A DNA stretch of 55,697 bases from Candidatus Micrarchaeota archaeon (GTDB lineage: Archaea; Micrarchaeota; Micrarchaeia; Anstonellales; JAGGVH01). The stretch is taken from positions 1-55,697 of the forward strand of contig JAGGVH010000039.1 of the NCBI GenBank assembly GCA_021158105.1, written 5' to 3'. Below the pieces are notes generated by a model. It was not told the origin of the DNA and searched no databases. It saw only the letters and a program-made list of their open reading frames with translations. This document shows positions 5,262-43,185 of the stretch, piece by piece. Positions within the stretch are counted from its first letter, which is position 1, and the number at the start of each line of letters is the position of its first letter. The translations under genes were made by a program, and so were the position numbers.

Positions 5262-6668
5262 ATGTATGGCGGGTATACTTATGTAGAACTGAAATATAAG
5301 CCGTCAAAGGATGACTTTATAGTTCTCTTATGGGTTAAAGGCAAAAATAAGATTGAAAAGATTGCTGAAGCGGTTGCCGCAGAAAGTTCAGTGGGCACAT
5401 GGACAAAACTCAGTACAATGAATGACATTGTATTCAAAAATTATCGTGCCCGTGTTTTCAAAATAATCAAGGTTACAAAAAGTTCAGGGTTTATTTATAT
5501 TGCTTATCCATATGAACATTTTGATTCAAAGAACATATTACAGTTTCAGGCCAGTGTCATGGGCAACATATTCGGAATGAAAGAGGTTGACGAATTATAC
5601 ATAATGGACATATCATTCCCTGAGAAGTATCAGAAACAGTTTAAGGGTCCAAAGAATGGTATTGAAGGCATCAGAAAATATGTAGGAACATTAAAAAGCC
5701 GGCGTCCGCACATTGGCACGATTGTCAAACCCAAGGTGGGGTTAACACCTAAAGAGTTTGCAAATGTCGCATACGACGCATGGAGCAATGGACTGGACCT
5801 TGTCAAAGATGACGAGAACCTGGTCGACCAGAAATTTTGTCCGTGGAAGAAGCGGTTTAATGAAGTAACCAAAAAGATGGACAAGGCAGAAAATGAAACC
5901 GGTGAGAAGAAGTTGTATGCCACAAACATTACTGACTCGTCAATCGACCGTATGATTGAACGGTTGGACTATGTTAGGGAGCACGGGCAGAGGATGGTAA
6001 TGTTAGATGTTTATGTCATGGGACTTGCAGCATTGCATGAAATGATTAAGCACACACGAAAGTATAACATATTTGTCCATGCCCACAGGGCAGGGTATGC
6101 TGCACATAACAGAGGAATGTTTGGTGTAAACTTTCAGGTTTATGAGAAATTTTATAGGATAATAGGTGTTGACCAGCTTCACATTGGCACGGGCGTGGGC
6201 AAGATGGAAGGGTCGGCATTGTACGTTAAACGGTTGCACGACATTGCGATAAAAAACAAGGGAGAAGAAAAGTTTTATCTGGGCTCATTAAAGTTCACGT
6301 TTGCCAAACATATTAAACCGTTGTTCCCAGTATCATCGGGCGGGCTTGACCCTGGCATGGTCGATGCTTTGATTGAATTGTTCGGGAAAGATATAGTCAT
6401 ACAGGCAGGCGGAGGTGTGCACGGGCATCCAAACGGTACTGGTGCAGGCGCAAGGGCGTTACGTTATGCTGTTGATTGTGCAATGAAACACATCCCGCTT
6501 CCAAAGGCATCAGAAAAAAATAATGACCTTAAACTTGCACTTAAAAAGTTTGGATATGCTGACCCGAAAGACATTAAAAATGTATTAAAATATGAAAAGA
6601 ACAACAAACAAAAATTAACAAGAGAGGTTAAGATTGGCGGGTTGGCAGAATACCAAAGGATAGTTTAA
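5262..6668 (+). CDS. rbcL: RuBisCO large subunit, form III / III-like
   Basis: AAESSVGTW, GNIFG, VKPKVGL, VKDDEN, HAHRAG, LHIGT..GKMEG, SSGG, QAGGGVHGHP: catalytic residue set present. Confidence 0.95.
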   Translation: MYGGYTYVELKYKPSKDDFIVLLWVKGKNKIEKIAEAVAAESSVGTWTKLSTMNDIVFKNYRARVFKIIKVTKSSGFIYIAYPYEHFDSKNILQFQASVMGNIFGMKEVDELYIMDISFPEKYQKQFKGPKNGIEGIRKYVGTLKSRRPHIGTIVKPKVGLTPKEFANVAYDAWSNGLDLVKDDENLVDQKFCPWKKRFNEVTKKMDKAENETGEKKLYATNITDSSIDRMIERLDYVREHGQRMVMLDVYVMGLAALHEMIKHTRKYNIFVHAHRAGYAAHNRGMFGVNFQVYEKFYRIIGVDQLHIGTGVGKMEGSALYVKRLHDIAIKNKGEEKFYLGSLKFTFAKHIKPLFPVSSGGLDPGMVDALIELFGKDIVIQAGGGVHGHPNGTGAGARALRYAVDCAMKHIPLPKASEKNNDLKLALKKFGYADPKDIKNVLKYEKNNKQKLTREVKIGGLAEYQRIV

Positions 6669-6695
6669 TTCTTCCAAAAGATGAGGTGAAAACAG

Positions 6696-7784
6696 ATGGT
6701 TGAATTTAGTATGCTTGACATGTTCATTCAAAACATTACTGCAATGGTTAGTGTCAACTCATTGGACAGTTATATTGTATCATTATCAGTTTTTGCTTCA
6801 CTGGTCATAATATTAAAGATTTTTAAGTTTGTCATATTAAAAAAATTGGAGCACATCTCCAAGAAAACAAAATCAGATTTTGATGATGTGATAATAAAAA
6901 TAATAGATGACATCGGTTGGCCGTTTTATCTGTTGTTATCATTGTATATAGGATTACAGTTTATTGTTCTCCCTGATATAATAATAGTGATTGTATACTA
7001 CTTGACATTGGTTTTTGCATTGTATTATACAACAAAAGGTGTAACAACACTGATAGATTATGGGACAAAAAAAATGTTGATAGAAAATAAGAAAAAGGAA
7101 AACAAGATTGACCCGTCAGTTGTCAACCTTCTTAATCAAATCTTAAAAGCAGTGGTCTGGTTCATTGCAATAATTTTTATAATCTCAAACTTGGGTTATG
7201 ATATATCAGCATTGGTTGCAGGATTGGGCATTGGCGGTATTGCTGTAGCATTTGCACTGCAGAATATATTGTCAGACATATTCGCTTATTTCTCAATACA
7301 GTTTGACAAACCGTTCACCACTGGCGATTTCATCGTTATCGGGAAGGATAGCGGGACAGTAAAAAAGATTGGACTAAAATCAACACGCATCAAAACATAT
7401 TCTGGCGGTGAAGAACTGGTCATTTCAAACAAAGAACTTACAGAAGAGCGTGTCCACAATTATAAGAAGATGGACACGCGCAATGTAATCTTTCAGTTTG
7501 GGATAACGTATGATACTCCTGTATCAAAGATTAAGCAAATTCCTAAAATGATAACACAACTAATAAACAAAATCAAACCTGCCAAGGTTAAGTATGTCCA
7601 TTTTAAAAAGTTTGGTGATTTCGCATTAATCTTTGAGGTTGTGTATAACATTCCAACCGGCGATTATGAAACATACCTAAAAATCCAAGAAAAGATTAAC
7701 ATTAGTATAATGGAATTGTTTAAGAAAAACAAAATTGAAATGGCTTATCCCACACAAACAATATATCTTCAAAAGGTTAAATAA
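6696..7784 (+). CDS. mscS: Small-conductance mechanosensitive channel (MscS family)
   Basis: N-terminal TM helices; AGLGIGGIAVAFALQNILSD, DKPF..GDFI, GTVKKIGLKSTRI, ISNKEL, AYPTQT motifs. Confidence 0.93.
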   Translation: MVEFSMLDMFIQNITAMVSVNSLDSYIVSLSVFASLVIILKIFKFVILKKLEHISKKTKSDFDDVIIKIIDDIGWPFYLLLSLYIGLQFIVLPDIIIVIVYYLTLVFALYYTTKGVTTLIDYGTKKMLIENKKKENKIDPSVVNLLNQILKAVVWFIAIIFIISNLGYDISALVAGLGIGGIAVAFALQNILSDIFAYFSIQFDKPFTTGDFIVIGKDSGTVKKIGLKSTRIKTYSGGEELVISNKELTEERVHNYKKMDTRNVIFQFGITYDTPVSKIKQIPKMITQLINKIKPAKVKYVHFKKFGDFALIFEVVYNIPTGDYETYLKIQEKINISIMELFKKNKIEMAYPTQTIYLQKVK

Positions 7785-29901: not shown

Positions 29902-32900
29902 ATGACTCAGGGTGTTAAGTTAGCTGAAAACATAAGCGGGGTTGAAATTGCGAATATTATCAAATCAAAAAATAGTGAAATAGGAAATGTTAATAATCTT
30001 AACATATTCATCGACGCACTCATACAACGGATGACCAAGTTGCATGATGAGGCAAGAAAGCACAACGAAGAGGGGATATTCCCCGACATACCCAAAACTA
30101 ATGAAGGGTTTGCTGACATGTTTATTGAATCGTTCAATAAAGCAAAAAAGATTATTAACGACCCGTTAAACCACGAAGCATTAAAAAATCATATGGGAAG
30201 AGAATTGACTGACGAAGAAGTATTAAAACTTACAATATTCATTGCAGGAAACATTTTGTTGTATGGGGAGAACGGCATTGCAGCAGTCAAAGGCAGTTTT
30301 GGATTATTACCCAATGATAACACCTTCAATTCTGTCCTGTCAACTGTAAACCAAAGAATATCATTTTATTTTACAACAATCTATGACCTTAAAGAGGTAT
30401 GGGAAAATATTCAGGGCAAGCTTAAAAACTCTTTTGACCCGGTTGATGCAGTTGCATTATTAACATTAAAAACTGAAGAGAAAAAAAGAGAAAAGATTGA
30501 ATATGTTCCAAAGAAAATAACCGAGCATGAGGAAAAGGAAGTTTCACCCACTGTCAAACATAAAAAGCCGTCTGTCAAAGAAAAACCTAAAAAAGAAGAA
30601 ACAACTGAAACTAAAGCACCGATAAGCGAAGAGTTGGCAAACGAAACGATTGAACAGATGTACATTATTGAAAACTACCTGACACCTTCTCAGCTTGCCG
30701 ATTTAGGTTATCTCCAGAATACACAGGACTTAGTTAGGATTTATTCTGATACAGACTTAATATTTTCGCCCGGGATGATTGCAGGGTTTGAAAAGCAATT
30801 AGAAGAGAAAGGATTGTCGCCGCAAGGTGAAGGAGTATTCGGCAGGGTTGGACTGAACAAGTATCATCTTGAAGAAGCAATATTGTATGCAACAGGTTAT
30901 CTTGAAGAGTTGTGGGGCGTTCCAAACTTAGTATTATGGGAAAATGATGATGAGAGGAAAGCTTTACAGCAGTTGATAATTAACCTTGGGATTTATGATT
31001 ATATGAACGGTAAAGGTGAACTTAAAGAATTGTTTGACGGTGCAACAGGCGATGAACTTAGGAAGGTGTTCTCAAACGGTAGAATCAACATGGACGCACT
31101 CAATGATATAAACAAAAGAGTGTTGAACGCAGTGCCGGAACAACAACAGTTTGTGATGTTTATCGCAAACCAAATCTTCTCAGATGAAGAAAAGAACAGG
31201 ACAAGTGTAATAAGAGAATACAACCAGTTGACAGCCAATACTGATGCGATGGAAATACTAAACCTGTACCCAACAGGAAAAGATTTAGAACTTGTCTCGA
31301 GCGGCAGGCCTTTAATTTACAATAAAGATGAAAAACAAATTTATGCGTTGACTGAAGAGAGAAAAACATTGTTCAGTGAAAACGTTGAACGGCTTGCACA
31401 AGGTGAGATCACATGGCAACAGTTTGTTAATATGTATCAAAAATATTATGGTGCAAAGTCAGCAGCTAAGATGATGACAGAGTTAAACATAACATATTAC
31501 GGCAACACTCCTATAAACAAAGGTGGCCATGGTGAATATCCAACCATTGGCAGTGATATATTATTAAACTATACAAGCAAAGGCAACCCATACCTCCAAG
31601 GAACAAACATCATAAAAAAACACTGGAAAGAAGCAACAAAAGGATTAGGTGATAAGTGGGACGGCTCAGTCAGTATGATAGGAGAATGGATATTGCAAAA
31701 TGTTAAGTTAAATAAGGCTGACAGGACTGAACTTGAAAATGCAATAATATTTTATAAAGCAGTTGAAAAAGGCGAAATCAATAATTATACATGGAAAGAA
31801 CAAAAAATAAAAAGTTCGCCCATTGACGACTTGTATTATTCAGTATCAAACTACACAGAAAAATGGCAGGATATGTTTGACCAAGGCCTTTTCACATTTG
31901 CCGAGTCGCTGGGTTGGGTTAAGATAACAAAAGATAAAAATGGAAAATGGACAAAAGTCGAGATTAAAAAAGAAGAAGAACTTAATAAAGTGTTAACCGA
32001 CCCGACATACATGCTTTATTTATCATATGCATTTGAGGTATTAGGACAGAATGCTGCAGCTGCACTTCATAACAAATACGGGAAAGAATGGATTCAACGA
32101 TTGAAAACAAAACCTGGAAGGAATGAAATCATTAATTTCCTTGGTAAGAGGTATGGGGCAAACTGGGATGCAAAAAAACGAATCAATGGTTATATTAAGG
32201 GTTCTAAAAATCTTACCAGGTTTATGGATGACCTCAATAAAATATTAGAAAATAATAATATTGACCCATTAAACTGGGCTGAAGTCACAAATAAATTAAG
32301 GACTGATGAAAAACTCAGGAATGAATTAACTAACATTTTTGTCACATTCTTACAGGAAAAGGATTATGCAAGCTCATCATTAATGTTTCCATTATATTTC
32401 AGATTCTATGAATTTGGTTCAGACGGGAAACCTAAGAAAGATAAAAGTGGCAATTATGTTGTTAAAAGGGATGTTGTTGAGGAGGAAGTTATGAAGATAC
32501 TCGACCCCGCAATCACTGACGGGTTTAATCCCTTGATAACATTAGGTTTTCTGATAACTGGTAACACGTATGAAAATGATTACACTGAAAGTTTCCATTG
32601 GAAGAAAAAAAGGGAATATACAGTACACTTTGACCTGGCACCGAACGGTAAAATAATACCTGAAATAATCAATGTTGGCAAACAATTAGGATTTGATGGC
32701 AGGATGGATGTTGAAAAAGATGAAGATGTCATCGTTACAACAGGCAAAGGTCATCCATTGAAATGGAGAAATGTTACTGAAAGAGAACTGATTGCATCAA
32801 TGGATGAAGACACAACCATAACAGAAATACAAATAAAAGACAGGAAAAACAAAAAAAGTGTGATGGCAGACATTGACACTCAAACGTTGTTACAAGTAAC

Positions 32901-34776: not shown

Positions 34777-36690
34777 ATGAAAAAAGAAATTATAATCATG
34801 ACTTTGATGATTACATTGGTCAGTTGTGATTCGATCGACCGAACTTTTTCAAACGCAGAATTTAGAGGATGTGCACCTCACAACTCAGATAAATTTAACG
34901 CTAATCTTTATGTAACATTTGGTAATGAACTGACAGCATCACAAATAATTAATCCTAGCACTCTTGAAATTTCTGCAGGTAGTTTAGATGATGGGGATTA
35001 TATTTGCCCTGGACAGATTAGACAACAACTTACAAATGAAAGATCAGAGTATGATTTTGTGGGCAAGGGGTATGGATCATATTTTTTAAGCTGTTTAGAT
35101 TTTCCTCTACAAAGCGGTCCGACACCTGGTAATTATAGTTATGAAAATTCAGCTAATTTAAATAAAGAATATGACGGTGGACTTTATTGTAATCCTGAAG
35201 ATCCTTGCAGTGACGTTGAAGTAGGTTACCAAACTGTGTGCAGCGGTGCACCTATGCACGCTCAACCTTTTGTATTAACAGCATATAATGGTTTCTCAGA
35301 AGAATCAGTAGGCTACACAACGATAGTAATGGCCGGACAGCTAACAAGGGGCGATAACGGAAACGTGTATAATACTGAACTTTCAAACGTGATGGACAGC
35401 ACTTTTTCGATCGTTGATTGGTCAGCTCCTTCAGAATTAGGGGACCATAACCTTAACATATACATTGAAAAAATTATTTTTGAAGCTGCAGCATACTATG
35501 AATGCAATAGTTGTCCAGCACCACCATGTGAAAAAGAACTTCAATATTTTAATTATCAACCTGACCAAAACATTGAACTGTTTTCAGGGGAGGTTCACGT
35601 TGTTAACCTGATAGCAAACGGGTCCATAGTAAACATTCAGGCCAATGGAAATCCAATCGATCCAACATCAGGCATCCCGGTCAACCCTGACGGAACACCA
35701 ACACATATTACTATTACTGTCAGCAATGACGGAGCAAGCAATACTGAACAAAACCTTGCCATGCCAATAACTGTAGAAAACGTTGTTGTAACATCTAACC
35801 CATCAGATTGTTTTATATTTACCCCAACAACACCATTGCCTTCATCGGCTATACCTGTCGGAGATACTATAAACATAGAAGGGGATTTATCTGCAAATCC
35901 CACTCCTACACATAATTGCAATGATGCAAACATCTCATTCAATATTAGTTATGAAGGCATAAGTGAGGATTGTAATGGTGCGACACCTGAGGGTAACGAT
36001 GTGTGGACGTATAACAGAAGCAAAGCACCAGACTACACATGTTCAATCAATGACGTGGTTGGTAATTATGGAGATCCAATAACAATCAACATTACAACAT
36101 CAAACATAGGCGGAGGACCAGGAGGTAACCCTTCAAATACATATATTAGAATACTACCATCAGGATATGAAGAACCATTTAACATACCATCACTGAACGC
36201 AGTGCAAAGTATATCCAATTATAGGATGATAACATGCAACTATTCCACTCCTCAAACTATATATGGATATGCAGACGTTAACGACAACATTTCCGAGAGT
36301 GATGAAAACAATAATCAATGCAACGCAACAATCACATGCACAAGTTATCCTGATTATGTTGCAAAATGCACTGGCGGAACAGGATACTTAGGAGATGTTG
36401 TTCAGTATACTGTTGAAACAAAAAATGTAGGGCAACCTGCCACTAACCATTCAATAACTAACGTTAGTATTGAAGGATTCATAATTAACCAATATCCCGT
36501 CCCAGGATTAAACACGAATGACATTGCACAAGAATCATTTAACTTCACATGTATGATAGCAGGACAATATAATATAACACCTTATGCAGATGCATTATTC
36601 AATATAAGCGAATTAGATGAAACGAACAATTATGAACATTCGTGTATTATAAATTGTTTATCAAACTACACATGTATAGATTACGTTTAA
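34777..36690 (+). CDS. Cys-rich secreted protein / putative lipoprotein with two CARDB-like domains
   Basis: MKKEIIIMTLMITLVSC signal with LVSC lipobox; ADVNDNISESDENNN and ADALFNISELDETNN CARDB signatures; GGAGG RBS. Confidence 0.8.
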   Translation: MKKEIIIMTLMITLVSCDSIDRTFSNAEFRGCAPHNSDKFNANLYVTFGNELTASQIINPSTLEISAGSLDDGDYICPGQIRQQLTNERSEYDFVGKGYGSYFLSCLDFPLQSGPTPGNYSYENSANLNKEYDGGLYCNPEDPCSDVEVGYQTVCSGAPMHAQPFVLTAYNGFSEESVGYTTIVMAGQLTRGDNGNVYNTELSNVMDSTFSIVDWSAPSELGDHNLNIYIEKIIFEAAAYYECNSCPAPPCEKELQYFNYQPDQNIELFSGEVHVVNLIANGSIVNIQANGNPIDPTSGIPVNPDGTPTHITITVSNDGASNTEQNLAMPITVENVVVTSNPSDCFIFTPTTPLPSSAIPVGDTINIEGDLSANPTPTHNCNDANISFNISYEGISEDCNGATPEGNDVWTYNRSKAPDYTCSINDVVGNYGDPITINITTSNIGGGPGGNPSNTYIRILPSGYEEPFNIPSLNAVQSISNYRMITCNYSTPQTIYGYADVNDNISESDENNNQCNATITCTSYPDYVAKCTGGTGYLGDVVQYTVETKNVGQPATNHSITNVSIEGFIINQYPVPGLNTNDIAQESFNFTCMIAGQYNITPYADALFNISELDETNNYEHSCIINCLSNYTCIDYV

Positions 36691-36705
36691 ACAAAAGGTG
36701 ATATA

Positions 36706-38175
36706 ATGCCTTATTATGGAAGACAGAACAAAACTGTTCCAAAACCTGTAGGTGAAAAAGGACCTGGCAAAATGCCCATGTATGACATGCCTTACGGTGC
36801 AACAAATACTATTGAAATGTTAAAATTGGCAAAAGGCACACTAATTTTCTGGAACATTACCTCGCCAAATTCATTAGAAAGCGTAAGAAAGATTGCAGAA
36901 AGACATAACCTTCCATTTGAAATATTTACTGAAGGAACTGATATAGTTGGTTTTAGGATGGAAATTAACGGTACTGAATATAACATCTCATTTACTGAAC
37001 CAAATCCTTCAGAAATTTTAGATAACTTTAGTTTATCATTAATAAATTTAGTATTTGAGAATAAAGATGTTGAAGATATGAGAACTTTATTTTACCTTCC
37101 AACAGGTGAACTTAACTCATTAGGAATAGAAATTGTTCAACATTTAGCTTCGCATTACAGTACAGACCAACCCACTGCTCAGGGAATGATAGATAACATG
37201 CTATCACAGTTAGAAGCTGGACAATGGAGAAGGGAAACATTTGACCCGGTGTTTAGGCCATTCTTTGCATCATCAGATTACCTAACAACTGAGAATTATA
37301 ATGTTAACATCCAATCAAAACCTTATCAGATTCACCAATTTCATATATCAGGAATGTTATACAAAAAAATGACAACTGGCAGGGACTTTGGTGTGCAGGC
37401 AATCGAAACAGGGTTATACATTGACAAGAAGAATGGTGTTGCATACTTGGTTGACAAAGAGGACGAACTACCTGACGAAATCAAGAAGGCATTAGATGAC
37501 AATCCGCAAGATATTGATGTTTACCATTACAAACCATACTTTGACCTGTTATGGTGGCAATGTGTATATTCAGGAAGGTTAAGGATTTATGGTGACATTG
37601 TAAACGCAAGTTCTAAACCATCAGGTGAAATCCAGGAGCAAACCTCTCCATATATGGTAGTAAACAAAGTAAGAACTATGTTCAAAACACCGCCAAAGAC
37701 ATGGTACTTTGGAATCCAACACGTGTTCACATACGGCCCGTCACCTTGGCAGCCGGGCAAGAGTTATCAGTTGGACATGGGCGGCGAACTGGGATATGCA
37801 AAATATTCAGAAGACAAAAAATGGATAGTGATCGGGGTCCACGGCGGAGGGTCATTATACCTTAATGCATTGACACTCAGTGGCAGTGTGACTAGACATT
37901 TTACAATAGGCAATACAAAAGGTATGATGGACAGTAATGTGACATCTTTAGGGTTCTCTTTAGGCACGAAAATAAACAACAAATCATTAAATAGGGTTAT
38001 AGGCGACACCAGCATTAAAATATACGAGACTCATAATGAACTTATAACCAGTATCGGTGCACAGCTCTGGAGCAATTACTTGGTAAAAGGCGGGGTTACT
38101 TATGAACACTGGAAACATGGTGAAAAACCTGCACAGGGTTTAGGACTTAAGATGAGTTTAACTGTTTCATTCTAA
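36706..38175 (+). CDS. Hypothetical protein with predicted C-terminal beta-barrel-like domain ending in Phe
   Basis: AGGTGA RBS; alternating polar/non-polar strands, final strand QGLGLKMSLTVSF*; paralog of the 1620-aa protein's C-terminus. Confidence 0.8.
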   Translation: MPYYGRQNKTVPKPVGEKGPGKMPMYDMPYGATNTIEMLKLAKGTLIFWNITSPNSLESVRKIAERHNLPFEIFTEGTDIVGFRMEINGTEYNISFTEPNPSEILDNFSLSLINLVFENKDVEDMRTLFYLPTGELNSLGIEIVQHLASHYSTDQPTAQGMIDNMLSQLEAGQWRRETFDPVFRPFFASSDYLTTENYNVNIQSKPYQIHQFHISGMLYKKMTTGRDFGVQAIETGLYIDKKNGVAYLVDKEDELPDEIKKALDDNPQDIDVYHYKPYFDLLWWQCVYSGRLRIYGDIVNASSKPSGEIQEQTSPYMVVNKVRTMFKTPPKTWYFGIQHVFTYGPSPWQPGKSYQLDMGGELGYAKYSEDKKWIVIGVHGGGSLYLNALTLSGSVTRHFTIGNTKGMMDSNVTSLGFSLGTKINNKSLNRVIGDTSIKIYETHNELITSIGAQLWSNYLVKGGVTYEHWKHGEKPAQGLGLKMSLTVSF

Positions 38176-38206
38176 CCTTTATCATCTATTTAGAACATAT
38201 ATATTC

Positions 38207-38257
38207 GCATTTTAAAATGTAAAAATGATGTAAAAATTGCATTTTAAAATACAATAT
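38207..38257 (+). repeat. 51-bp direct repeat, copy 1
   Basis: GCATTTTAAAATGTAAAAATGATGTAAAAATTGCATTTTAAAATACAATAT; touches the ATPase stop codon. Confidence 0.95.
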
Positions 38258-39534
38258 TATGGCAAAAGATAAAGGTATAATGGAATTTTAGGAACGCCAA
38301 CATATTCAACTTTATTAGTATCAGAAATTATCATTTTGTTTTTACCTGTAAGTTGTTTCATATCTTTTGACCTGCCCCCAACTTCAACTGAAATCTTTTT
38401 TCTTTTGTTTGATATTATAAAATCACTCTCTCTTCCTCTATTTGGCACATACCATATATCAAATCCTGAATAAACTGTGTTGGACACTACAGCTTCTTCT
38501 CTTATCATACCTATGTTCGGTTCTTCACCAAGGTGGTCAAGAATTGATAATCTCAAAGAAGGAGAAGAAAAATAATACTTTGGCATCTTTCTAAGTCCGC
38601 TGCGGCCGCCTGATTTTACTTCAATGAGAAGAGACGATTTCACCATCCCATCTATAATCGCACTCACAGCAGTTCTTGATACTCCAATATCCCTTGAAAT
38701 ACTGTTAACACTTGTCTTTGCATCCTTTGCCATTGCAATTGAATAAAGAATATCTTTTGCTTTATTCAATGTTTCAGAATCAAAAGAGGATATATATCTT
38801 AAATCATCAGTAATTATACGGTCAACAACATCAAACAGTATACTGTACCTTAAATGCTCTGCCCGATTAAACACAACTGGAAGACCGTGATATTTTAAAT
38901 AGTTCCATAATTCACTATGAGCCGAGTCCGGAGCTCTAAATTCTTCTCTAATGATATTTTCATACATGTTTGGACTGAATAATGCTTTTTTGACATCAGT
39001 TTTAACATCATACCCTTTTATCATTAAATATTCACCATATTGTACAGGACAAAGATGCATATAAACTGCTCTTCTTTTCAGTATTCCTTTTTCTCTCAAT
39101 CGCAATGCCGACGAGCCGCTTATTATCAAAAAAATATCCTTATTTTTATCAAAAACATTCTTAACCTCTTCAGCCCATCTCTTATGGATATGGGCTTCAT
39201 CAAGAACTACGACATATGGTGGTTTAACTATTCTTTTATATGCGTTAACAACATCTGAAAGTGATAAGTCATAGAATTCTTTTACATCAGCAAATATAAA
39301 CAACGGGTGAATGTCTACTTTTGAAAGAAACTGGCAGATTGCAGTTGTTTTACCAACGCCTCTTAATCCCCATACAACAATTAATCTATCTTCATTATTA
39401 CCTGATATAAATGATTTGTAAACTTTATCTATTTTATTAACTATCTTCCTTTCATACTGTACCCCTTCAGTATATATTTTTATGATTTTGGGAGTTTCAA
39501 TTAAACATTCTTGAACCCATTCCAGCAATTCCAT
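38257..39534 (-). CDS. AAA_14 ATPase with wHTH and DUF4143 (PD-(D/E)xK-like) domain, COG1373 type
   Basis: Walker A GLRGVGKT, Walker B VVLDEAH, SGSS, KMPKYYF.SP.LR, ESDFII...VEVG motifs. Confidence 0.88.
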   Translation of the reverse strand: MELLEWVQECLIETPKIIKIYTEGVQYERKIVNKIDKVYKSFISGNNEDRLIVVWGLRGVGKTTAICQFLSKVDIHPLFIFADVKEFYDLSLSDVVNAYKRIVKPPYVVVLDEAHIHKRWAEEVKNVFDKNKDIFLIISGSSALRLREKGILKRRAVYMHLCPVQYGEYLMIKGYDVKTDVKKALFSPNMYENIIREEFRAPDSAHSELWNYLKYHGLPVVFNRAEHLRYSILFDVVDRIITDDLRYISSFDSETLNKAKDILYSIAMAKDAKTSVNSISRDIGVSRTAVSAIIDGMVKSSLLIEVKSGGRSGLRKMPKYYFSSPSLRLSILDHLGEEPNIGMIREEAVVSNTVYSGFDIWYVPNRGRESDFIISNKRKKISVEVGGRSKDMKQLTGKNKMIISDTNKVEYVGVPKIPLYLYLLP

Positions 39535-39568
39535 AATAATATATGTATAGTAAACTTTTTATATGTTT

Positions 39569-39619
39569 GCATTTCAAAATGTAAAAATGATGTAAAAATT
39601 GCATTTTAAAATACAATAT
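39569..39619 (+). repeat. 51-bp direct repeat, copy 2
   Basis: GCATTTCAAAATGTAAAAATGATGTAAAAATTGCATTTTAAAATACAATAT; one mismatch to copy 1; just upstream of the ATPase TATA box. Confidence 0.95.
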
Positions 39620-39687
39620 ACATAACACACACTAAACAAGTTCTTTTCTTACAGAGGGTTCTTTGCTTCACCTTGATAAAGAAACCT

Positions 39688-40923
39688 CTATTCGTATCTC
39701 AATGCATCAACAGGATTAAACTTTGACGCTTTCCACGCAGGTGATATCCCTGCCACAACACCAATAAGAAGCGAAAATATGAACGCACCTACTGCCAGCC
39801 ATGGTGTCATTATAGCTTCAACACCCAGATTAAACATCACTGAAACATAATTAAACCCATAAATTAAAAGAAAGCTTAAAACTAAACCTATCAACCCGCC
39901 CAGTCCGCACAACATTGCACTTTCAGTTAAAAATAACATAAGAATCTGGTGATTTTTTGCACCTAACGCTTTCATTATACCAATCTCTTTAGTCCGTTCA
40001 AGAACTGCAGTGAACATCGTATTTGAAACGCCAACTGCACTGACTAATAATGAAATGCCTGCAATTGTCCCTAAGAAAATAGTGATTACTCCTAAAATTG
40101 TATTAATCTGTTCCATGATATATTCAGAAGTCATCACAGTAAAGTCATCCTCTTTAACTTTATGTGCAGAACGCAGTTCAAACTCAATCCTGTCTGCAAC
40201 ATCTTCCGGATCAAACCCGTCAGCCACCCTAACATAAACTGCACTGATCTCGTTTTTGCCCATCAACCCTAAATCATCAACAATGTCACGTGCTGTACTG
40301 TAAGGTATTGCAATCATCTGGTCATCACCACTGCTACCTGACATTCCGCCAATCTTTTTCATTATGCCGACAACCCGATATTTTTTATCATTTATATAGA
40401 TATAAGAATTGACATTTATTGGCTTATCAAAAACATTATATGCAAAATCATGACCTATGAGTACTACATTCTTTTCATTGTCCTTAAAAATTCTACCCTT
40501 TGCAGGAGAATATTGTGGCATGATTCCTGAAGTAAACAGGTTTGATTCCATGCCAGCAGGGGCCATATAAATCTCTTCACCTTTATACCTTATTTTACAC
40601 TTTGGAACGATTAGCATCCTTGATGTGAACACAATTCCGGGAATTCTCTGTATCCTGTCAACATCTGATTCATAAAGTTTACCTTGTTGCGGCCTATACT
40701 GCGCACCCATACCTATCATACTCTTTAAACTTCCAGGCAGGATTATAATATTCTGTGGTCCAAACTCTTCCAATTGCTTAGTAACAGTATGTTTTAACCC
40801 GTCGCCTAAACTTATCATTACAACTATTGCAATCACGCCGACGATGATGCCCAACAACGTCAGCCATGATCTTAAACTCCTATGCTTAATATTGATAGGT
40901 ATGAGCATCAGGTAATCCATCAT
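39688..40923 (-). CDS. ABC transporter permease (MacB/FtsX family)
   Basis: RSWLTLLGIIVGV, GVSNTMFTAVLERTKEIGIMKALGA, PAWKASKFNPVDALRYE motifs. Confidence 0.95.
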   Translation of the reverse strand: MMDYLMLIPINIKHRSLRSWLTLLGIIVGVIAIVVMISLGDGLKHTVTKQLEEFGPQNIIILPGSLKSMIGMGAQYRPQQGKLYESDVDRIQRIPGIVFTSRMLIVPKCKIRYKGEEIYMAPAGMESNLFTSGIMPQYSPAKGRIFKDNEKNVVLIGHDFAYNVFDKPINVNSYIYINDKKYRVVGIMKKIGGMSGSSGDDQMIAIPYSTARDIVDDLGLMGKNEISAVYVRVADGFDPEDVADRIEFELRSAHKVKEDDFTVMTSEYIMEQINTILGVITIFLGTIAGISLLVSAVGVSNTMFTAVLERTKEIGIMKALGAKNHQILMLFLTESAMLCGLGGLIGLVLSFLLIYGFNYVSVMFNLGVEAIMTPWLAVGAFIFSLLIGVVAGISPAWKASKFNPVDALRYE

Positions 40924-42461
40924 TGCTTGCTCACCTTTTTATTCTTGAAAAACACAAAATATGCAACCATGCCTACCAAACCTATCACTATAAAAACAAC
41001 ACAGATAAATGATTGGTTGCCCACAATCGCATCAGTAAAAGATGATTCGGATTCATAAACATTAATGTTCTTTGTCACTTCAACCTGGTGAGGCGTGTTC
41101 GCCATGTCAAGATAACTTATTGTAAATTTGAGAGGATACTGACCTGACGCAACTCTACCAACTTTAATCTTATACTGTACAGTACTGAAATCGTCTGCGT
41201 CAAGAGAACCTATAAACTGTTCACTTTCAGGATCTAAAACATTAAACACATCATTTGAATGAACCATAACCTTCAAAGCCTTAACATCACTCACGCCAAC
41301 ATTAGTAGCCTGAACAGAGAATGTGTGCACCTTGCCTGACTCGACAGGCAATGGACTGGTAGTAACATATACATTAATCGCAGGTGGTGATGAAATATAA
41401 ACACCAACATTACTCGTTTCAGGAGTCATCTCCTTATTATTTTCATCATTGTAAGATATTGTTATTGGGATTGTGTAATATCCTAAGTCAACGTCCTTGG
41501 TCGCAACAGAAATTCTAACTGTCTTAATCTCACCGGGCTGTAATGCTCCAATGCTCACTGCTGACTCAGACAACGGTATCAGCACTGTATTATCACTAAA
41601 GGATAATGTTACATCCTTTGCAAGATGTTCACCATTATTTTTTATACTAAAATAAAGTTCATTTTTTGTATTGGGCAAGAGTTTAGAATCATTCATCAGG
41701 ATTAAGAAGTTTGGACGACGTTCCTTGATAAGAACAGGAAGATTAAACAATGTAGTTTCACTTTCCCCTAATGAATTAGTATAGGTTAAATACAACGGAA
41801 ACTCTGTCCTTCCCGAAGCCGCATCGTCACTTACTGAAAGAACAACATTAACAGTTTTAGTTCCTGACAAGTCGCCAATATAATAATTTGATTGGCCACT
41901 AAGTTTAACATAAGTACCATTAACTATCAAATAAGCATCATTAACCTTCTCGCCATTGTTGACAAACGTCATATTAACAGAAATCTCACTACCAGTCTCA
42001 AACACTGTGGGCTCAACCTGTGCAGAGATAGTTACAGGCTTCTTAACAGTTATTGGTATGTTGACCCATCTACTGATGTACCTCTCTTCATCCTTTTCAT
42101 TGCTGGATAACAATTCTTCCCCTGAAAGATGAAGATATAACGTATAAACTCCACTTGACAGGTTATTATCAATCTGGAACGGTATGTTTACAATTGTGGA
42201 CGCACCAGATTTCAACCTTCCGACTGACACCGACTGGTCGGTCTTTATGCGTGATGACCCTTGTGAATATAATGACAATGAAACAGTATCACTGCCAACA
42301 TTGGTCAAAGTCACCTCAGCCATTCCGTTACTGCCCGGCGGAAGTTCTGATGACGGCAAAATCTGATAACTGACTGTAACATCTGCCCATGCCACCCCCA
42401 ACAAAAATATTATTCCAAACGTCCAGATTAACAATTTATTATTTTCCATCATACTTATCAC
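40920..42461 (-). CDS. COG1361-type S-layer-domain / Ig-like surface protein
   Basis: Signal peptide, repeated Ig-like units (N.G...A.DV, IG.L.PGE, Y...I.Y), C-terminal TM; usual partner of archaeal MacB-type ABC systems. Confidence 0.85.
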   Translation of the reverse strand: MISMMENNKLLIWTFGIIFLLGVAWADVTVSYQILPSSELPPGSNGMAEVTLTNVGSDTVSLSLYSQGSSRIKTDQSVSVGRLKSGASTIVNIPFQIDNNLSSGVYTLYLHLSGEELLSSNEKDEERYISRWVNIPITVKKPVTISAQVEPTVFETGSEISVNMTFVNNGEKVNDAYLIVNGTYVKLSGQSNYYIGDLSGTKTVNVVLSVSDDAASGRTEFPLYLTYTNSLGESETTLFNLPVLIKERRPNFLILMNDSKLLPNTKNELYFSIKNNGEHLAKDVTLSFSDNTVLIPLSESAVSIGALQPGEIKTVRISVATKDVDLGYYTIPITISYNDENNKEMTPETSNVGVYISSPPAINVYVTTSPLPVESGKVHTFSVQATNVGVSDVKALKVMVHSNDVFNVLDPESEQFIGSLDADDFSTVQYKIKVGRVASGQYPLKFTISYLDMANTPHQVEVTKNINVYESESSFTDAIVGNQSFICVVFIVIGLVGMVAYFVFFKNKKVSKQ

Positions 42462-42462
42462 C

Positions 42463-43185
42463 TCACTTTTTCATTTCAATTTTTTCAATCATACCATCCC
42501 TGATATGTATAACCTTATTAACATATTTCCTTTTTGAAACATTAACATCATGTGTTATAATCACGACAGTTTTCCCATTATCATGAATCTCTTTTAGGAT
42601 ATCATAAACCTCTTCGCCACTCTTTGAATCCAAATTGCCTGTCGGTTCATCCGCAAGGATAAGATTTGGATCATTGACAAGTGCACGTGCAACAGAAACA
42701 CGTTGTTGCTGTCCTCCTGAAAGTTCACTTGGCAGATTATACAACTTATCAGAAAGGCCCAACCTGTTCAGAAGCTGCCTTGCCTTTCTAAGCCTGACAT
42801 CATAAGGCACATCATAAAACATCATTGGAAGCATAACGTTCTGGAGTGCATTGAGCGACTGGACAAGATTAAAGGATTGAAAAACAAAACCGATGTCTTT
42901 AAACCTTATATTAGCCAACTGGTCATATGTATATAAGGAAGTATTCTTCCCACGAAAATAAACTTTTCCCTCTGTTGGAGTATCGAGCAGTCCTAAGATA
43001 TGAAGTAAAGTAGATTTGCCACTGCCACTCGGACCCAGAATCACCACAAAATCGTTCTTATTGATGCTGAAATTTATTTTTTTCAATGCATAAAAATCAA
43101 TCTCGCCCATGACATATTTTTTATATACATTTTCCAATCTTATTATCTCTTCAGTTTTAGTTCTTCCAGTCTTTTTTGGTTTCAT
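42463..43185 (-). CDS. ABC transporter ATP-binding protein (LolD/MacB-like)
   Basis: [41 protein letters not shown] motifs. Confidence 0.96.

Follow-up and report, generated by a model that had tools for sequence, protein, structure and literature searches.

In this work, a gene for a 425-aa ATPase that is enclosed by two nearly identical direct repeats was analyzed in a Candidatus Micrarchaeota archaeon (DPANN; assembly GCA_021158105.1), whose genome consists of 961,869 bases in 50 contigs. The gene lies on contig JAGGVH010000039.1 (C14), and the whole 55,697 nt of this contig are called the window below. The architecture is real and highly non-random, and it was not found described in the literature searched. 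We give about an even chance to the reading that the repeat-gene-repeat unit is a portable one-gene cassette, delimited by the duplicated operator of its own winged-helix ATPase. The original prediction for this stretch had proposed a single-gene mobile cassette as a possibility. One gene is indeed what lies between the repeats, although the unit is no lone curiosity, because at least 16 paralogous genes in this genome are arranged alike.

Layout of the Repeats and the Enclosed Gene

The direct repeat occupies positions 38198-38257 and 39560-39619, with an identity of 57/60 and a spacing of 1362 nt, and the identity stops abruptly at either side. The 50 of 51 matches predicted earlier between 38207-38257 and 39569-39619 were confirmed (one mismatch), and this match extends to the 60 nt given here. 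In 100 shuffled sequences, no match of the kind seen for the 51-mer pair occurred, so that none is expected by chance. By searching the whole genome, only these two copies of the 60-nt repeat were found, so in this genome the 51-mer is not a common intergenic repeat. An independent JGI assembly (L030) covers the entire cassette with both repeat copies, and further ENA/JGI contigs from other samples continue through the left copy into the ATPase gene. Independent assemblies show the same layout, and therefore an assembly artefact, which the original prediction had named as a possible refutation, is excluded.

The open reading frame (ORF) between the repeats (38257-39534, minus strand) is a single gene. 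The first base of its stop codon is the end of the downstream copy (38198-38257, minus strand), which is followed by no TATA box of the cassette. The upstream copy (39560-39619, minus strand), the putative operator, ends 25 nt 5' of the ATG and adjoins the TATA-like ATATAAAAA. One copy at the stop codon and the other just upstream of the TATA box had been predicted, and the sequence agrees. The putative core promoter (39535-39565, minus strand), with ATATAAAAA about 22-30 nt 5' of the ATG, is mostly outside the duplicated segment. Judged from this position, the TATA-like element implies a leaderless or very-short-leader mRNA, provided that the predicted promoter is functional. All three mismatches between the 60-nt copies fall in the promoter-proximal 16 nt. 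The whole cassette (38198-39619, minus strand) measures 1422 nt with a period of 1362 nt, and its G+C content is 31%, compared with 37-38% in its two neighbor genes.

Each 60-nt copy is composed of two 18-bp imperfect palindromes of the type TTGCATTTTAAAATRCAA, and their GCATTTTAAAAT cores start 32 nt apart (38207 and 38239). In the downstream copy, unit A (38204-38222) is the imperfect palindrome TTCGCATTTTAAAATGTAA with the core CATTTTAAAATG. Unit B (38237-38254) is the imperfect palindrome TTGCATTTTAAAATACAA, and its GCATTTTAAAAT core follows that of unit A by 32 nt. At period 32, the two units agree at 13/14 positions. The units of the upstream copy lie at 39566-39584 (promoter-proximal) and 39599-39616 (distal). 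The internal order described earlier, one element twice around two units of another, is present, but it is better read as these two palindromes. Since 32 bp corresponds to about three helical turns, both palindromes would be on the same face of the DNA.

The Encoded ATPase

The assignment of the protein to the AAA_14/DUF4143 family was confirmed by Pfam matches above the cut-offs, both for AAA_14 (PF13173; 1.8e-18, 67.2 bits vs a cut-off of 27) and for DUF4143 (PF13635; 2e-09, 37.8 bits vs a cut-off of 28.1). Furthermore, seven hidden Markov models of PADLOC for PDC-S01 match the protein, the best of them at 5.1e-27. G56, G61, and K62 of Walker A, D112 and E113 of Walker B, and the acidic E346, D371, and E384 of the PD-(D/E)xK-like core are invariant among the aligned sequences. 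The lysine of the (D/E)xK motif in the DUF4143 domain is replaced by glycine (EVGGRSK), and the catalytic lysine is not at its canonical place. Many paralogues have QV(T/C) or EVG where this motif is expected.

The AlphaFold (AF2) model, calculated with the paralogues as alignment, reached a predicted local distance difference test (pLDDT) of 84 and a predicted template modeling score (pTM) of 0.84. It comprises an AAA+ core, a helical lid, a winged helix (approximately residues 253-322), and a C-terminal alpha/beta domain. The top matches of Foldseek were ORC4/5 and Orc1/Cdc6 on DNA (2qby), with a probability of 1.0 but a template modeling (TM) score of only 0.24-0.34. The best TM score belonged to the Pyrococcus ATPase PABY2304 (2qen; 0.45/0.54), and STAND proteins (among them Avs4 and CED-4), RFC, and RuvB score similarly. 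A sequence search of the PDB with the protein found no relative. Among the defence candidates of prokaryotes, PDC-S01 was reported to rank fourth in abundance, with approximately 40,000 copies and enrichment in Archaea, and it is a candidate for phage defence for which no experimental validation was reported (PMC12988326). In the papers on PDC-S01/COG1373 that were searched, the family figures only as a very widespread defence candidate that awaits testing and that combines an ATPase with a PD-(D/E)xK domain, and neither flanking repeats nor cognate DNA sites nor gene mobility are mentioned.

Flanking Repeats Throughout the Gene Family

AAA_14-family genes were located by whole-genome tblastn and Pfam search. 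There are about 33 of them, which together make up 41.7 kb, or 4.3% of the genome. Their flanks were compared after anchoring on the Walker A match, and the result is thus independent of start-codon calls. A flanking direct repeat of at least 20 nt was present at 18 of the 31 testable genes, and 16 of the 31 have one of 35-129 nt with 92-100% identity. The repeats are all different in sequence, and each is found only at its own gene. Thus, the question raised earlier of whether other COG1373 genes possess flanking repeats of their own can be answered for this genome in the affirmative. The remaining 13 of the 31 genes have no downstream copy. The same flank test was used as a control on all 444 ORFs of at least 250 aa away from contig ends. 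Flanking repeats of at least 20 nt occurred at 14 of them, and all 14 are AAA_14-family ATPases; by our own arithmetic, the chance of this is about 0.07^14.

The brackets also share their position relative to the gene. About 20-40 nt separate the end of the upstream copy from the start codon, and a TTTAWA/TTATAAA box that is not duplicated follows this copy in most of the 16 cassettes. The downstream copy begins no earlier than 17 nt ahead of the end of the stop codon and no later than 22 nt past it. The identity ceases sharply on both sides, and whole blocks of 40-70 nt including the spacers are 92-100% identical. All 16 brackets of at least 35 nt are direct and none is inverted, though many of the units are palindromic; this speaks for a duplicative origin rather than an independent recruitment of sites. 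Brackets are present in both C-terminal subgroups of the DUF4143 proteins. Moreover, all four ATPase_2-type genes (C42:5425, C37:3541, C20:24667, and C46:72054-73073), whose products have an MCM_C-like winged helix and no nuclease domain, are bracketed. On contig C43 (31864-36101), three bracketed cassettes abut in mixed orientation with gaps of 23 and 2 nt.

At the ATPase_2-type gene of C42, a 69-nt repeat type is present three times (5352, 6425, and 7618, within 5352-7686), the third copy being 88% identical. The order there is repeat, ATPase_2-type gene, repeat, 1.1-kb segment, repeat. The 1.1-kb segment contains a RelE/ParE-like ORF of 104 aa (7016-7330, minus strand), so a second cassette, which is not an ATPase cassette, uses the same bracket.

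A Two-Unit Site Upstream of the Promoter

Most bracket repeats are built from two units, palindromic in some cassettes and direct in others, that recur at a period of 31-33 nt. By considering the 13 genes with a strong upstream sub-repeat (at least 12/14 matches), the period of 31-33 nt was found in 11, and four of these 11 are without a downstream copy. In the whole genome, 14-26 sub-repeat clusters were counted at period 31-33 vs 1-10 at six control periods. Eleven to 16 of the clusters at period 31-33 sit in the 7% of the genome that adjoins ATPase genes, and the rest corresponds to background. The two-unit site 5' of the promoter is thus a general feature of the family, and roughly half of the genes have a downstream duplicate in addition. 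At C40:6270-6329 and C4:85-136, two further sites resemble such operators, with two units at a period of about 32 nt (e.g., TTGTCTAAGAAAATGGACAA / TTGTCCAGAAAAATGGACAA). Both are less than 200 nt from contig ends, and any cognate gene would be beyond the assembly break.

The Repeat Travels With the Gene

In a collection of 5.8 billion proteins, the closest relative of the window protein is P0002 (74% identical), and it is the only close one. Its gene is located in another archaeon between a cbf5/truB-like gene and a thioredoxin gene. Most housekeeping proteins of this host are 41-60% identical to those of the present genome, and transcription factor B (TFB) is 77% identical. The P0002 gene is bracketed by its own 54-nt direct repeat (47/54, 87%), which is homologous to the window repeat. 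Because the homologous repeat stands at an orthologue in an unrelated locus, the window repeat came with the element and not from the target. None of the four copies (two each from the window and P0002) deviates in the half-sites ATnTTGnnTTTnnAAAnGCAA and TTnCnTTTTnAAATG, while the spacers differ, and the two P0002 copies differ from each other mainly in the spacer. The two proteins agree fully at the beginning of the recognition helix (SRTAV) and in the wing (RKMPKYYF) of the winged helix.

The second orthologous pair, G006 and G003, comes from different families, and its proteins are 79% identical. The DNA homology (1303-2648 vs 1301-2647) is bounded by the two repeats, its limits being the outer edge of the downstream repeat on one side and a point about 10 nt past the upstream repeat on the other. 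The two-unit motif of this pair was found in only 2 of 176 genomes of the order, with exactly two copies in each. Gene and bracket are co-inherited in both pairs. Variable sites in the two four-copy alignments join copies from the same genome in 18 cases and copies at the same position (upstream vs downstream) in two. Either copy around a gene thus has the other as its closest relative, i.e., the copies evolve in concert. As far as the alignments can tell, the copies may have been either homogenised or re-made by duplication from one copy.

Searches with the window element gave little beyond P0002. Among the 176 genomes of the order, the best protein match is 36% identical, and a DNA search of 40 relatives with the whole cassette as query gave nothing alignable. 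In 185k species genomes searched for the window operator pair, two chance-like bacterial matches were obtained. Relatives of the P0002 host were sought for an empty cbf5-trx site, and none closer than 42% was found in the collection.

Occurrence in Related Genomes

Two genomes of the same genus keep the synteny around the window locus, where giant surface-protein genes converge on ABC-transporter genes. The syntenic intergenic regions measure 129 and 100 nt and contain no ATPase gene. The number of DUF4143 matches is 22 in this genome vs 0-9 in 14 relatives, and at least one match is present in half of the 201 sampled genomes of the phylum. Brackets occur at about 8 of 24 loci in the relatives and at 7 of 23 loci across the phylum. 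Some brackets of the relatives are of the operator type, and others are duplicated host-like coding sequence or tRNA ends. At L053, L175, and L177, the repeats are coding-like. In the present genome, ATPase genes are found at most 3 kb from contig ends more often than expected (17/35 vs 10.5, P=0.013).

The 187-nt bracket of L053 (G002:C54, 901-1080 and 2321-2507) consists of a two-unit site with a 32-nt period and about 120 nt more, and a third unit is present on its upstream side. A single repeat can thus combine an operator-type duplication with a longer one. The bracket of the ATPase gene C22:29824-31071 is a 21-nt duplication from the 3' end of a tRNA (C22:29707-31097). The source tRNA gene is just downstream on the opposite strand, which leaves an att-like footprint despite the one tyrosine recombinase of the genome. 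Two brackets surround the ATPase gene at C11:41824, an inner palindromic one of 36 nt and an outer repeat of 129 nt, which opens with the 3' end of a host gene. This host gene (39593-40552) codes for a membrane protein, and its final 35 nt occur at three places (40502, 41584, and 43257). Within C11:40502-43385, the copies separate a pair of genes for 181-aa and 143-aa proteins from the ATPase cassette, so the cassettes are stacked behind one gene end.

Proposed Function and Movement of the Cassette

We hypothesize that a compact, portable one-gene cassette extends over 38198-39619 and that the two 60-nt repeats form its ends. Each repeat would be a two-unit site, and it most likely represents the cognate binding site of the winged-helix domain of the encoded ATPase. 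The upstream copy, abutting the TATA box, would be the gene's own operator, and autoregulation may be expected. The downstream copy would be a duplicate operator without a core promoter that marks the other end of the cassette. Repeat, gene, and repeat would be inherited and relocated as one piece. The duplication may be regenerated at each insertion from a single-copy intermediate, such as a 1362-bp circle or a terminally redundant linear form; alternatively, gene conversion could homogenise the copies.

Beyond the window, a tentative and, in our estimation, rather unlikely extension is that minimal mobile elements of a new class make up, or are found among, the AAA_14-family genes, with PDC-S01 and its archaeal ATPase_2 relatives taken together. 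Each element would have three parts, namely a promoter, a single gene whose product is an Orc1/Cdc6-like DNA-binding ATPase, and the two-unit site that this ATPase recognizes. Once assembled on the site, the ATPase would act with host or trans-acting enzymes to excise the element to a single-copy intermediate and re-insert it. Re-insertion would duplicate the site at both ends, and the resulting direct terminal repeat, being element-borne, would be the opposite of a target-site duplication.

The original prediction had also proposed that the protein binds the repeats and that the unit is mobile. The gene-specific repeats that moved with the gene, the preserved half-sites, and the congeners without the gene are, at the level of sequence, consistent with cognate sites and portability. 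A foreign origin is further suggested by the low G+C content of the cassette relative to its neighbors, the enrichment of ATPase genes near contig ends, and the abutting cassettes on C43. On the other hand, several observations weigh against a portable cassette, beginning with the traces that movement should leave in the assemblies. The proposed empty site with one copy was sought in relatives and in contigs from other samples, and none was found. Contigs of the same population were searched by exact-protein look-up with both flanking genes, the ATPase, and the gene flanking the C43 array, and none contains an empty site with a single repeat. All contigs that reach the site from the left, from four samples, carry the cassette, and contigs of the population from other samples either carry it or end ahead of the cassette or inside it. 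What looked like an indel in L031 was rejected, as it is a run of N. The congeners that lack the gene are distant (permease 57-59% identical), and their empty site is not alignable base by base. No circular contig or circle junction was found in the assemblies, and no solo copy was found in the genome, the order genomes, or the species genomes. Two-unit solo sites likewise show no excess over background genome-wide. Such sites would be expected to accumulate if repeat-by-repeat excision were common, and therefore this result also speaks against it. The brackets themselves give no history of loss: none of four bracket-less genes has a decayed downstream remnant, and repeats are either at least 92% identical or missing, without a simple decay series. 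No difference between bracketed and unbracketed genes was seen in the G+C content or in the G+C content at third codon positions (GC3; P=0.72 and 0.13, respectively). Finally, we know of no mechanism that duplicates an element's own operator upon insertion.

Alternative Explanations

The alternative that survives best, though we regard it as doubtful, is that the arrangement is purely regulatory. The ATPase would then be an autoregulator with operator clusters on both sides, for looping or for insulation against read-through, which are kept alike by gene conversion. The gene would have spread by ordinary horizontal transfer of larger fragments, and the repeats would be uninvolved in movement. 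Lambda cI, located between OL and OR and subject to CI-mediated looping, is the textbook precedent for such an arrangement. A regulatory role would account well for the generality of the upstream two-unit site with its 32-nt period, which is found even in genes without a bracket, and for half-sites that are conserved while the spacers vary between lineages. The drift of the P0002 copies to 87%, mainly in the spacer, and the lack of solo sites and circles agree with it as well. It explains less easily why all 16 long brackets are direct, though palindromic units would work either way, and why sharp-edged blocks of 40-70 nt are nearly identical with their spacers included. In addition, 13 of the 31 genes manage without any downstream copy, and the homology between the G006 and G003 genomes ends at the repeats. 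In some relatives, the duplicated host-gene or tRNA ends that form the bracket are footprints of recombination.

Self-transposition is unlikely. Here, the PD-(D/E)xK domain of DUF4143 would cut at both repeats and would excise or insert its own gene, in line with a self-encoded recombinase as suggested originally. The invariant E346, D371, and E384 and the specificity of the sites for each protein suit a nuclease of this kind. However, the four nuclease-less ATPase_2-type genes share the bracket, so the nuclease cannot well be the general engine and this part of the original prediction is not upheld; furthermore, QV(T/C) or EVG stands in place of (D/E)xK in many paralogues.

It is quite improbable that the cassette is an integrated mini-replicon, with the ATPase as replication initiator, the repeats as iterons or origin boxes, and the bracket derived from the integration of a small plasmid. 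The ORC subunits and Orc1/Cdc6 on origin DNA among the top structural matches speak for it, as do sites that are initiator-specific and repeat at whole helical turns, like the haloarchaeal origins adjacent to orc genes. Nevertheless, no A+T-rich unwinding element lies between inverted boxes, since the boxes flank the gene as direct repeats, and a genome of 1 Mb would be harmed by dozens of active origins. A free circular contig was not found either, and the family is listed as defence-associated and not plasmid-associated (PMC12988326).

A target-site or att-type duplication of host sequence, produced by a trans-acting integrase or by homologous recombination through the end of a host gene, is very improbable for the window. 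Duplications of this type do occur in relatives, at C22:29824 (tRNA end), the outer repeat of C11:41824, L053, L175, and L177. In contrast, the window repeat overlaps neither the end of a neighbor ORF nor a tRNA, and no tRNA was found in the window. The homologous repeat at the unrelated locus of P0002 and the presence of only one tyrosine recombinase in the genome (C21:6342-6671, near no cassette) also speak against a copied target. Lastly, chance similarity or an assembly artefact, for which only the low-complexity, A+T-rich nature of the repeat could be cited, is excluded by the shuffled sequences, by the same layout in independent assemblies, and by the recurrence of the pattern in 16 genes here and in other genomes.

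Comparison With Known Systems

The cassette resembles integron cassettes, integrase-less elements flanked by att sites, origins adjacent to orc genes, and the terminal repeats of retroelements and phage T7, and it fails a defining feature of each. With PDC-S01/COG1373, it shares the AAA_14 and DUF4143 domains and the seven PADLOC models matched, and it differs in that the window gene carries a private two-unit site on both sides. Integron cassettes are likewise compact, mostly one-gene units that can be stacked, as the three on C43 are, and each has a private imperfectly palindromic site that varies in sequence within a common architecture. In an integron, however, a cassette has a single attC, which stands at the 3' end, so that the two sites flanking the gene differ, whereas here the same site is present twice. 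There is also no IntI, attI, or common promoter here, and each cassette has its own TATA box. Unlike in transposons and insertion sequences, which have terminal inverted repeats and duplicate host sequence at the target site, none of the 31 genes has an inverted bracket of at least 35 nt, and the direct repeat moves with the gene to other loci.

Cis-mobilizable elements (CIMEs) and Campbell-type insertion-duplications similarly consist of a segment between direct repeats without a recombinase of its own, and some sister cassettes carry duplicated tRNA or host-gene ends as these elements do. Their repeat is target sequence, whereas the window repeat is element-borne. As for att-flanked elements, the window repeat is not a copy of a tRNA or host-gene end; the repeat at C22:29824 and the outer one at C11:41824 are. 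In haloarchaea and Sulfolobus, there are many orc1/cdc6 paralogues, each with private boxes nearby, and such gene-plus-site pairs transfer together. By its fold match, with low TM scores to the initiators, the window protein may also be an Orc1/Cdc6-like AAA+ winged-helix protein beside its own putative repeated boxes. In those origins, however, the origin recognition boxes (ORB) are inverted around an unwinding element on one side of the gene, whereas here identical direct repeats stand on both sides with no evident unwinding element. As in the long terminal repeats (LTRs) of retroelements and the terminal repeats of the T7 type, the ends are copies of one element-borne segment and are mutually closest, as would be expected if a single template gave rise to both at each round, but here there are no reverse transcriptase and no phage packaging genes in a one-gene unit of 1.4 kb. 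Lambda cI is also a regulator gene between two clusters of its own operators, although OL and OR are neither near-identical 60-nt direct repeats nor the ends of a transferable unit.

PDC-S01/COG1373 is among the most abundant uncharacterised gene families of prokaryotes. If the brackets mark mobility, they would define a recombinase-free one-gene element with element-borne direct terminal repeats, which is absent from current classifications. If they are purely regulatory, they offer a new archaeal example of a gene enclosed by its own operators. Either reading bears on why reduced DPANN genomes give 4% of their DNA to one gene family. The minimal mobile element, if it exists, would explain why the family is common as a defence candidate, why it is multi-copy, and why it occupies 4.3% of a reduced genome. 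Moreover, this genome provides about 16 natural putative protein-site pairs, in which each private two-unit site is present exactly twice, and these pairs are suitable for in vitro tests of specificity, ATP-dependent assembly, and any cleavage.

Observations at Neighboring Loci

By comparing window 34777-43185 with the two congeners (L019 and L020), two tandem genes for MacB/FtsX-type permeases were seen in the congeners and one in this genome (39688-40923). This genome has an extra gene for a 489-aa protein (36706-38175) with no Pfam match, and the congeners are without a separate equivalent. In G001, of the same genus, the region syntenic to window positions of about 38176-39687 (L019:5277-5405) contains a 31-nt unit that is present in 2.5 tandem copies and includes the palindrome AAAAGTTTC...GAAACTTTT. 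This unit was considered as a solo site and rejected, because its related copies adjoin tRNA-like sequence and not ATPase genes. Contigs of the same population from other samples often stop in or a few bases from a bracket repeat, e.g., L028 and L029 (window 39606-39628) and L160-L162 (C43, in or near the repeat at 31864-31932). These stops may be only the response of the assembler to a repeat, or they may hint at variation within the population.

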